A DNA stretch of 64,000 bases from Escherichia coli (GTDB lineage Bacteria; Pseudomonadota; Gammaproteobacteria; Enterobacterales; Enterobacteriaceae): NCBI RefSeq assembly GCF_016026235.1, contig NZ_CP065613.1. One strand, written 5' to 3'. Made by a program: the position numbers. Every line of letters starts with the position of its first letter. Position 1 is the stretch's first letter. Shown here one piece after another: positions 58,401 to 61,400 of this stretch.

Positions 58401-61400
58401 GCAATAAAAATTTTTATTTCTTATGTCAATTGAGCATATTTTAATCGGGAAACATCATGGGGGTTCTGATTACTGGAGAACTCCATTTCTTATATTCCGC
58501 AATTTGCACCGTGAATTTATTTTCAGTCTGGATGGTGCTGCAACTGAGCATGACACGCTGTTACCACGATTCACCGATGATATTCACAATCAGTCATGGG
58601 ATGGTGAAAGGGTCTTCGTTAACCCACCATACAGCGACACTAAAACATTCCTCGTAAAAGCGTCTGAAGCAGATTTAGCGGTATTCCTGATACCGTACCG
58701 ACCCCAAACCATATACTGGCTTAAGCACATCTTCACAAACCCGCTTTGCCATGAAATCCGTATTCTTCATCGTGCAGTTAAATACCTTCCACCAGCAGGG
58801 CATAACAGGCTTACTATTAGGTCACCGTTTCCAAGTGCAGTCGTTGTTTTTAAAAAAGAACCACGTAAGCATGAAATTACACAGATGATTTGCTGTGGTG
58901 ACACATTGCTACCGTTAACCATCATTAACCGTGGTGGACTAAGAGGAAGACCCACCATTTACCCACCTGAGACGCTCGACAGCTTCATAAAACTATACAG
59001 GCAAGGCAAACCCATTAAGTGCATTGCAGATGCTCTCAGAATGCCCCTGAGCACGTCATACAGGATTGCTCAAAGGTTGAGCTAAAATTCTCATAAATAT
59101 GGTCATTTACAAGACAGGTGTTTTAGATATTAAGAAGTATCCCTGTGAACAATAAATGACCAATCAGTAATTATTCTGTGAAATAATTGTTGCAATTTAT
59201 AATCACATCTGTTATAGTTTCTATGGGCTGATAAAAGAACTCAGAACATTAAGAGGTTACAACGTTGGGAGGCGTCAGAGTATTGACGGATTTTCACAGC
59301 CTCTTATTCATTCAAGGCTTTTCCTTTTGCTGTTAATGCTCGCGTAATCGCTCAGGCTTCTGAGTTCCTTTATCAGTCCATCTTCTAATTAATTCACTCC
59401 CTCTGGGGTTGGTCACTATACGTGGTCAGCCCTTTCTTTGTTTTATTTTTAAAAAGGAAAACGTAATGGAAAAATTTCACATGTTTGATGACCGTATTTA
59501 TCAGATGACTAATGGCGTTAAAGCTGCCGACCGTATTATTTACACTGTCATGTTGAATGAACAAAAGTTTTATCACGATAAGGGGCAATATTATACCCCT
59601 TCATATGCTCATCTTGGTCAGTATGCTGGAATCACAAGAACATCCGTGATTGCATGTATGAAACGACTTGAGGCACATGGTTTAATCAAGAAAACTAACG
59701 TTGCAAGCAATCAGTGTGTTATTAAAGTTTATTCACTTGATGAAGTACCGGAAGTTTTAACAGAGCTTACAGCTAAGGAAGCCAGAAAGGCAAAGCTGGA
59801 GTCTAAAGTTACTCAGTCAGTCAAGAAAGATGACCCACTGAGTCAAAATTCTTTACCCACTGAGTCAAAATTTTTTACTCAGTCAGTCAAAATCTTTGAC
59901 ACGTATAATAACAGTAATAACAAGAAAGAACTTATTAATAACAATAAAGAAGATGACTTTGAAGAAGAATCTCTTAAGAAGGGAGCTTCGCTCTGTGATT
60001 CACATGAATGTGATTCTCTTGGTATTGAAGAGGCTATTAAACAATCTGACTTGGATGACCTTGATAAAGAGGCTATTAAACAAGATGAAGTAAACTCTGA
60101 TGTGAATGAAGTTAGTGACCAGCAAGATACACCTTGCCGCCTCGAATCAACTGATGATGAATTACCGGATGTTGACCTTGATGATGAAGAAGACCCTGAA
60201 GAGGAATTGAAACGTGAACAGCGTAAAGCAGAAATTAAAGAAAGATTCAGAAAGGCGAAGCTAAAGAGCAGGATTGATGAACTTGATGACTTTGATGATA
60301 GTGACGATGATTTTACTTTTACACCAAAAAAGAAAACTCACACCGAGCCAAAGAAAGAAAAAGTTAAAGTCAGACGTGTTTATGGTGGAGGAATGTTTTA
60401 ATGAAAACTTATAATGGCGAGAGAAAATACCGTGACTATTTACTCAGACGTTACAGCATTTCTCGTGAAGGTTACTTGATGAAAGATACTCACGGGGAAG
60501 TTTACCGGATTCGACCGAAGAAAGAAGGGAGGGATTATTATTTCGTCGATGGTGTGACAGATTTAAAGATTGACGCTTTGAGGTTTGCAGTGATGTATCA
60601 TTTTGATATCTGGGATTCAGTCCACCAGCTACGATTAAAAGACGGTGACCCCAATAACTTAAAGGCCACCAATATTATCACAAAACGTTAGTTTGTTTTA
60701 CCATCATCAATCGTAATTGTGATTTCATATTTGAAAAGCTTAATGCTGAAATTGAATCGTGTACTTTTGGCGATAATCATTTTTAAAAGCTGATACACCA
60801 GAAGCACCAGAAACACAAAGCAACCTAAGCTTGCGAATCTGTGAGATTCAGCAATTGTTTCAAGAAAGCCCATTAATTCCCCTTATTTATCAAAGGGAAT
60901 GACCTGTATCAGCCCCCTATAAACATAATATCATGTAAATGAGATGTTGACAATATGTTAAATAAATGTTAAGATTGTAGTATGAGCAAGAGATTTAAGG
61001 AGATTTTTGCAATGACTCACACAGTTACGCGCCTTTTGCCAGAGGCATTTGAACGACTGGCAGCAATCAAAGCCAAATACCCTGATATGAAGCACACAGC
61101 GCTTGTTGGAGAGCTTTTAAAAGAGTCGGTAGCCCTGACCCCTTTCGATAACGTTAAGGGCGTTGCAGAGGGTTCTAAGGCCATCAGAATCACAACAGGC
61201 CAACTGGAACTACTCAAAGCACAGTCCGCAGTAGCAGGTTGCTCAATGATTCAGGTGTTAAGCGCGAAGGTTCATCAACTGGCGGATAGATTGGAGGTTT
61301 GATGCTATGTACATTTGATTATCATGCGTTTTATCGCCATAGAGGTCATCTTGTCCGTGAGAATAACGGAACATGGAAAGATTTAACTCGTAATGCTGAA

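Follow-up and report, generated by a model that had tools for sequence, protein, structure and literature searches.

Can a gene annotated as a Dam methylase be acting on GATC when the element that carries it contains no GATC at all? The question is raised by a gene, here termed dam-HTH, that lies in a 64,000-nucleotide stretch of the Escherichia coli chromosome (RefSeq assembly GCF_016026235.1, contig NZ_CP065613.1; hereafter the window). Its product joins a phage-type N6-adenine methyltransferase core to a C-terminal helix-turn-helix (HTH) of the kind found in resolvases, and its surroundings are a mobile island from which GATC is absent. Annotation pipelines name the product "DNA N-6-adenine-methyltransferase (Dam)", and most readers would assume GATC methylation. 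The reading put forward here, with a probability somewhat short of one half (about 0.45), is that dam-HTH encodes an active N6-methyladenine (m6A) methylase whose HTH serves DNA targeting, whose specificity is other than plain GATC, and which would be expressed early by a satellite-like island.

A phage-type methylase core joined to a resolvase-type HTH

The dam-HTH coding sequence specifies 220 amino acids plus the stop codon, with an ATG start and the N-terminus MSIEHILIGKHHGGSDYWRTP; the close homologues (n=573) are all 220 amino acids long. The original prediction had placed the protein in the phage N6-adenine methyltransferase family from the motifs DYWRTP, SLDGAATEH and NPPY. All three are present in the open reading frame (ORF), and profile searches agree with the placement. 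The Pfam family Dam (PF05869) was detected at E=7e-14 and 52.2 bits, above the gathering score of 28.1, with an alignment spanning profile positions 9–95 of 169; orthologues score 67–85 bits against the same profile, and the Franconibacter orthologue matches it across positions 8–161. PHROG_111 ('DNA methyltransferase') matches residues 15–151, and the PADLOC 'orphan methyltransferase' model is covered over its whole length. The score against the NCBIfam equivalog TIGR01712 (phage_N6A_met) is 39.6 bits, far below the cut-off of 97.05, and dam-HTH is therefore a member of the family rather than a demonstrated functional equivalent. The DxWxTP, LDGAA and NPPY motifs are invariant in 118 E. coli alleles and are also kept in distant relatives.

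A sequence search of the PDB returned no solved relative of the catalytic domain. AlphaFold prediction without an alignment gave an uninformative catalytic domain, with a predicted local distance difference test score (pLDDT) of about 30, and was rerun with an alignment of 110 homologues. The whole model is then confident (pLDDT 91, predicted template modelling score 0.86), and the predicted core adopts the Class I S-adenosylmethionine-methyltransferase fold, with likeness to known N6-adenine DNA methylases. The α/β core in this model reaches approximately residue 170, as residues 140–170 form core β-strands. The methylase part is thus about 165 residues long, and not ∼130 as first proposed.

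The C-terminal ∼80 residues had been taken for an HTH unit. An HTH is indeed predicted there, but it is smaller, about 45 residues (∼175–220). A three-helix unit at residues 182–219 is predicted both without an alignment (pLDDT 84–94) and with one; in the latter model the helices cover residues 182–193, 198–205 and 209–219, and the linker from the core is short, of lower confidence and contains RGGLRGRP. The Pfam family HTH_7 (PF02796, resolvase HTH) aligns to residues 175–215 at E=2.7e-4, with 21.4 bits against a gathering score of 23.8; the threshold is passed by the orthologues from Franconibacter (P0276, 34.1 bits) and Erwinia (P0123, 25.5 bits). From a shared GRP tripeptide onwards, the tail aligns with 33% identity to the HTH at the C-terminus of the neighbouring upstream recombinase, and it matches the DNA-binding domain of small serine recombinases by sequence and by fold. 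GRP is the minor-groove arm of Hin and the resolvases, and in dam-HTH the predicted three-helix fold likewise follows a GRP arm.

The fusion is conserved, selected and modular

A profile-free search that covered 1.8 billion representatives exhaustively gave 2,173 relatives at E<=0.001. Nearly all of the 150 listed are 140–190 residues long and align to query residues ∼12–150, and among these 150 the HTH tail occurs in only about seven clusters at 50% identity, all from Enterobacterales (E. coli/Shigella, Pluralibacter, Erwinia typographi, Franconibacter helveticus and Raoultella). Because the tail-less homologues, more than 2,000 in number, end at about residue 145–170, the HTH is an add-on outside the canonical fold; the outcome that the original prediction had named as refuting, a tail belonging to that fold, is thereby excluded, and the proposal of an added DNA-binding module holds. 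Other long PF05869 members are fused to a second methylase or to segments without an assigned family, not to an HTH. The fusion was not found in 50,697 GenBank phage records, in which no phage covers >=80% of the protein, nor does any IMG/VR contig encode it, the relatives there being limited to the N-terminal domain at <=39% identity. An ordinary prophage or phage gene was rejected on the basis of these two collections.

Across five genera the fused architecture is kept at 35–64% identity, and hundreds of E. coli alleles have it, always at lengths of 220–238 residues. The 118 E. coli alleles are 88–96% identical to the query, and their least variable part is residues 150–220, comprising the HTH, the GRP arm and the preceding hairpin, which suggests a conserved DNA target. 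At dS up to about 2, pairwise ratios of nonsynonymous to synonymous divergence (dN/dS) lie at 0.14–0.33 for the core and 0–0.39 for the HTH, so that purifying selection acts on both. The E24377A allele (L088 12685–13353) is a mosaic in which a CUPS04-type catalytic domain is followed by a window-type HTH and window-type downstream DNA, the dS from the window being about 1.3 for the former and about 0.3 for the latter. This points to recombination at the domain boundary, and the pairing of a divergent core with a window-type tail shows that the two domains are modular and recombine independently.

These data bear on the idea of an accidental recent fusion or pseudogene, in which a truncated dam would have been joined to the tail of a resolvase gene. 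The likeness of the C-terminal domain to that of the adjacent resolvase is what such an accident would leave, but the identity to that tail is only 33%, the architecture has been maintained across the genera and alleles just described, and both parts are under purifying selection; the idea is effectively refuted. dam-HTH is neither a pseudogene nor a recent accident. It is a variation on a known family and not a novel kind of enzyme.

The gene resides in an island devoid of GATC

Some 60 codons into mdtG the reading frame is interrupted, and in strain RM9088 mdtG is annotated as partial and disrupted at the identical site; dam-HTH therefore lies on an insertion that starts near position 56,945. 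The last GATC of the window is at 56782. The island portion contains 0 GATC against 23–25 expected, while the flanking 57 kb has 218. Four homologous copies in other strains, mutually diverged at dS above 1 and each with 41–52 sites expected, show the same absence (Table 1). GATC is the most avoided 4-mer in the islands (z=-12.9), and among 5-mers avoidance is strongest for the Dcm site CCWGG (1 vs 43 expected; 0–1 per island). Many 6-bp restriction palindromes are missing as well, among them those of EcoRI, SpeI, NsiI, XhoI, PstI and SacI. Low GC was rejected as the cause of the GATC depletion, as the mononucleotide and Markov expectations both give 23–52 sites per island.

The same pattern is found in the 88.8-kb Felixounavirus genome pinkbiff, which has 0 GATC against 300 expected and 5 CCWGG against 93, and from which the same palindromes are missing. 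Felix O1-like phages without GATC are on record (PMC5477317, PMC4690856). Avoidance of the same 6-bp palindromes by island and phage indicates strong restriction selection, which would fit a protective methylase. With 0 GATC in the island and 0 in the likely helper phage, a GATC-specific enzyme has no substrate on either, and GATC self-protection is impossible. A conserved active enzyme could therefore not be working on GATC in the island or in pinkbiff, and activity in another sequence context is the most economical reading. The GATC-free surroundings thus argue that the 'Dam' label, which the original prediction had adopted, is doubtful and probably misleading.

Nor is there a partner nuclease. 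As the original prediction had noted, no restriction endonuclease adjoins the gene, and the nine neighbouring ORFs yielded no nuclease or defence family, nor did the annotated full islands or the tail proteins encoded by one homologous island. Hence dam-HTH is an orphan methylase and not, as in a type II restriction–modification system, one with a cognate endonuclease beside it. The original prediction, which did not recognise the conserved satellite-like island in mdtG, had suggested anti-restriction or regulation as its possible uses.

Gene order and distribution of the island

Of 5,426 complete E. coli genomes, 437 carry parts of the island and 278 the dam region, in no case on a plasmid; a plasmid origin was ruled out, with no match in 72,556 plasmids. 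Complete homologous islands of 11–12 kb are located at yciI-tonB, adjoining wrbA and inside yecE. Their conserved order is a small serine recombinase, dam-HTH, a winged-helix replication initiator with internal 16-nucleotide iterons, small uncharacterised genes, a tape-measure gene (Pfam TMP_3), a Dit-like baseplate gene and an outward-facing large serine recombinase. dam-HTH is present in every complete E. coli island examined, including one that has another replication module and lacks the resolvase. At the yciI-tonB site of an E. coli O111:H8 genome (L087 8452–18151), IS1203 and a lambdoid prophage segment stand in place of the island genes behind the same small recombinase; the site or the left end of the island appears to have been reused by other elements.

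Table 1. Features of the dam-HTH locus and of homologous islands. Positions are those of the window unless another source is named.
Feature	Position	Strand	Evidence or remark
mdtG (multidrug efflux transporter) remnant	55891–56950	-	5' end removed by island insertion; ∼350 C-terminal codons in frame
Window share of GATC-free, CCWGG-free mobile island	56950–64000		Left junction in mdtG ∼56,945; runs off window end
Half-site cluster GTCTCA(A/T)AAGG	57405–57511		At least 5, both orientations; inverted-repeat search; upstream of recombinase gene
Small serine recombinase (resolvase/invertase, 183 aa)	57527–58078	+	Pfam Resolvase E=6e-42 plus HTH_7; PHROG_125 DNA invertase
dam-HTH upstream control region	58079–58422		Six-island alignment, BLAST to pinkbiff, motif enrichment
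Felixounavirus-shared element 1	58229–58262		pinkbiff 43051–43084; BLAST
Felixounavirus-shared element 2	58300–58362		pinkbiff 34841–34901; BLAST
CTNTTAAG motifs	58305, 58355, 58368		
Palindrome AGATATCC-CAGAAA-GGATATC	58322–58343		
TTGTCA -35-like box	58386–58391		
dam-HTH coding sequence	58423–59085	+	ORF list; Pfam, NCBIfam, PHROG and PADLOC matches
Methylase core, residues ∼12–170	58456–58932	+	Contains DxWxTP, LDGAA motif I, NPPY motif IV
DxWxTP (D16-YWRTP21)	58468–58485	+	
LDGAA motif I (S35-LDGAATEH43; LDGAA = 36–40)	58525–58551	+	
NPPY motif IV (N67-PPY70)	58621–58632	+	
Resolvase-type DNA-binding module, residues 175–220	58945–59082	+	GRP arm plus three-helix HTH
Promoter/RNA/terminator block	59190–59446		Between dam-HTH and rep
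Promoter-like site TTGCAA-17-TATAGT	59190–59218	+	Promoter scan
Long hairpin RNA, ∼160 nt	59223–59381	+	RNA fold -76.4 kcal/mol, z=-6.7
Strong terminator and T-run	59405–59433	+	Terminator scan
Replication initiator, rep (winged-helix, O-like/DnaD-like)	59466–60401	+	PHROG replication-initiation families, E down to 5e-11
16-nt iterons TTACTCAGTCAGTCAA inside rep	59809, 59853, 59875 (59809–59890)		Spacing 44 and 22 nt
Tape-measure gene start	63776–64000	+	Runs off window; 72% nt identity to start of pinkbiff tape-measure gene
Island copy, MRE162 (L001)	L001 14600–26150		GATC: 0 observed, 48 expected
Island copy, 67-1 (L084)	L084 13300–25600		GATC: 0 observed, 52 expected
Island copy, CUPS04 (L089)	L089 10300–21760		GATC: 0 observed, 42 expected
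Island copy, E24377A (L088)			GATC only inside inserted IS66; 47 expected

The half-site cluster upstream of the recombinase gene resembles a res site when set against the known res layout of Tn3 and γδ, and such a site would suit multimer resolution of a replicating island. Because small recombinases adjoin dam-HTH in every genus, an invertible promoter switch of the Hin/Fim kind upstream of dam was considered; it is unsupported, as neither the recombinase gene nor the intergenic region was seen to be bordered by convincing inverted repeats. The iterons inside rep, in an arrangement like that of λ O and its origin, are likely the origin of the island. Between dam-HTH and rep, the long hairpin RNA shows compensatory changes in the E24377A copy and matched no Rfam family; the block that contains it is a candidate for a regulatory RNA of ∼225 nucleotides or an attenuating leader for rep. 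Farther downstream, a 27-nucleotide inverted repeat (96% complementary, 36-nucleotide spacer) at 62560–62649 precedes a 236-residue ORF (62678–63388), which PGAP sometimes labels 'transposase', yet which has no Pfam match.

In islands of the Raoultella/Erwinia type, a small tyrosine recombinase comes before the dam-HTH orthologue and a block of replication or structural genes after it. The orthologue of Franconibacter helveticus (L090 7777–13718), with the same methylase-HTH, belongs to a mobile flagellin island: directly before it are genes for flagellin and an FljA-like repressor of phase-1 flagellin, and a large serine recombinase gene lies after it.

The island shares structural genes and control elements with Felixounavirus

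The island baseplate protein is 74% identical (80% in nucleotides) to a Felixounavirus protein, gp20, that is encoded beside the tape-measure gene. Full-length tape-measure homologues are present in the MRE162, 67-1 and CUPS04 islands, and the island protein is 30–50% identical to its Felixounavirus counterpart; in MRE162 the tape-measure and baseplate genes occupy L001 21499–24565. The GC content is 39% in pinkbiff and 38–40% in the islands. The large serine recombinase, the replication initiator (Rep) with its iterons and the tape-measure and baseplate homologues make up the gene content of a phage satellite of the PLE or PICI kind, and the island is without capsid, portal or terminase genes. 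By gene content and composition, it looks like a candidate satellite of virulent Felix O1-like phages. A literature search found no paper tying Felix O1-like phages or Felixounavirus to a satellite, nor any describing PLE-like elements in E. coli. Tail interference by Tai was considered as an explanation of the island tail genes, and the Tai paper had nothing relevant.

The region upstream of dam-HTH extends this likeness to control sequences. Its two shared elements are 87–88% identical to non-coding pinkbiff DNA. The motif CTNTTAAG clusters directly 5' of dam-HTH and is enriched 3–7× in the islands, with no enrichment in the E. coli core; pinkbiff has 71 copies against 17 expected (4×), with >20 in one 1.4-kb non-coding region at 42.5–43.9 kb. 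The shared elements and CTNTTAAG suggest common regulation, or regulatory mimicry, between island and phage, and the resemblance of the dam promoter region to phage control regions would be consistent with helper-linked expression. Alongside the similar composition and site avoidance, these motifs give an indirect hint that a helper phage may trigger excision, replication and packaging of the island.

Possible roles of dam-HTH

If dam-HTH is a targeted methylase of altered specificity, it would work as follows. A minimal PF05869 core, without a target-recognition domain of its own, would have gained a Hin/resolvase-type domain at its C-terminus, and this HTH would anchor or direct the core on DNA, where the enzyme would act on adenines outside the plain GATC context. 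The gene would be expressed as the first one to the right of the resolvase, in a small island that presumably integrates via its large serine recombinase and replicates via Rep and the iterons. Methyl marks would be placed on the DNA of the island, and possibly of the helper, in the burst of replication. Its likely purpose would be to shield island DNA, perhaps in the virion, from adenine-dependent restriction such as that of Type I and III systems, which avoidance of palindromes cannot escape; local control of replication or transcription at the regulatory and origin region of the island may be another.

Several points weigh against this reading. Target specificity is not readable from sequence, and the characterised members of the family, the Dam enzymes of T1, HP1 and VT-2, methylate GATC. 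The islands of the same architecture in Raoultella, Erwinia and Franconibacter are not GATC-depleted, and their normal GATC content means that the clade may have GATC specificity. An HTH binding site was looked for without success, and across genera the upstream repeats show no co-variation with the recognition helix. The satellite behaviour of the island, finally, is drawn from gene content and composition only.

A tentative alternative, which we regard as doubtful, is that the protein is a bifunctional enzyme and regulator, whose HTH binds operators of the island, and perhaps of the helper, to autoregulate dam-HTH or switch early genes independently of the methylase, in the manner of M.SsoII. 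The position of the gene favours this: it directly follows a nearly invariant 130-bp non-coding stretch that contains the palindrome and, next to the TTGTCA box, the three CTNTTAAG motifs, and in all genera it occupies the regulatory left end, after a small recombinase and before the replication module. The recognition helix is also kept between island types whose upstream regions have only short motifs in common. However, none of the motifs could be linked to the HTH. The palindrome was rejected as an operator, since its stems differ between island types while its loop is conserved, and it may instead be a hairpin; CTNTTAAG is so abundant across the phage genome that its ligand may be a phage protein. 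A purely regulatory role for the HTH would also leave the conserved catalytic domain unexplained in an element without GATC. The conserved catalytic domain is a difficulty as well for an ordinary GATC-specific phage Dam that acts on the host chromosome or on co-infecting elements, its HTH only raising the affinity for DNA in the manner of CcrM. Family membership, the GATC specificity of the characterised relatives and the homologous fusions in islands of normal GATC content favour such an enzyme. But E. coli is Dam-positive, so that host GATC is already methylated, and neither the island nor its putative helper contains any; with almost no unmethylated substrate, the catalytic residues are nevertheless invariant and omega is about 0.2. 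Given also the shortfall at the equivalog cut-off, we consider this alternative unlikely.

More improbable still is an inert catalytic domain reused for DNA binding or an accessory role, for example as a decoy or as the directionality factor of the serine integrase. The directionality factors of different large serine recombinases bear no structural relation to one another, none is annotated on the island, and the Pfam alignment covers little more than the first half of the profile. Against this, no catalytic or cofactor motif varies, the protein matches the full length of the PADLOC model, the Franconibacter orthologue fills nearly the whole Pfam profile, and the predicted fold is complete and confident. 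The targeted methylase of altered specificity also has a more far-reaching version, to which we give little credence: the island would be a satellite of virulent Felix O1-like phages, and the HTH would place m6A at the shared CTNTTAAG-type or palindromic elements as a site-directed epigenetic tool. If so, the mark would tune the early operon and origin of the island or sabotage the regulatory or origin region of the helper, and the absence of GATC and CCWGG would hide both genomes from host Dam, Dcm, MutH and SeqA.

Relation to known systems

CcrM of Caulobacter is a β-class m6A orphan methylase with an essential C-terminal DNA-binding segment of ∼80 residues outside the catalytic fold. dam-HTH likewise is an orphan adenine methylase with a C-terminal extension, and that of CcrM contributes DNA binding; CcrM, however, belongs to the N6_N4_Mtase family, its tail is not HTH_7, and it is chromosomal and cell-cycle regulated rather than part of a mobile element. 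M.SsoII and M.Ecl18kI are methylases with an HTH that binds a specific operator, and the HTH region of M.SsoII represses its own promoter. They resemble dam-HTH as methyltransferases carrying an HTH, theirs modifying and regulating in one polypeptide. In contrast, they are C5-cytosine enzymes with an N-terminal HTH and form part of restriction–modification systems, whereas dam-HTH belongs to an N6-adenine family, has its HTH at the C-terminus and lacks an endonuclease.

Dam-like enzymes of P1, VT-2 and HP1 are listed in PMC7556043. dam-HTH has in common with the Dam enzymes of T1, HP1 and VT-2 (PF05869/TIGR01712) the catalytic domain with the motif order DxWxTP-LDxAA-NPPY, a core of 150–170 residues without a separate target-recognition domain, and orphan status on mobile elements. 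It differs in its extra 45-residue resolvase-type HTH, its sub-equivalog score and its GATC-free element. The DNA-binding domains (HTH_7) of Hin, γδ/Tn3 resolvase and Sin show the same GRP arm followed by a three-helix HTH. In dam-HTH this HTH is attached to a methylase core instead of a recombinase catalytic domain, and the dimer geometry and site architecture must therefore differ from those of the recombinases.

The closest parallel for the island is PLE of Vibrio cholerae, a satellite of the virulent myophage ICP1 (PMC9638900, PMC9410903). Both are small islands with a large serine recombinase, their own Rep and origin, no capsid genes and an apparent tie to a virulent myovirus. Unlike PLE, the E. 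coli island has a resolvase and the methylase-HTH as well as tape-measure and baseplate genes of helper type; no sequence relationship to PLE was seen, no comparison having been aimed at one.

Two things make dam-HTH of more interest than an ordinary orphan methylase: it bears a Dam label in a GATC-free element, and that element resembles an undescribed Felix O1-like satellite. The case suggests that the PF05869 core can be retargeted by an added recombinase DNA-binding domain, which would offer a natural and simple way of directing adenine methylation. The island occurs in several percent of E. coli genomes and has tail genes, base composition and site avoidance in common with Felix O1-like phages. 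If it is a satellite, it would be the E. coli counterpart of the Vibrio PLE–ICP1 pair, with a bearing on the therapy and typing phages of the Felix O1 group.

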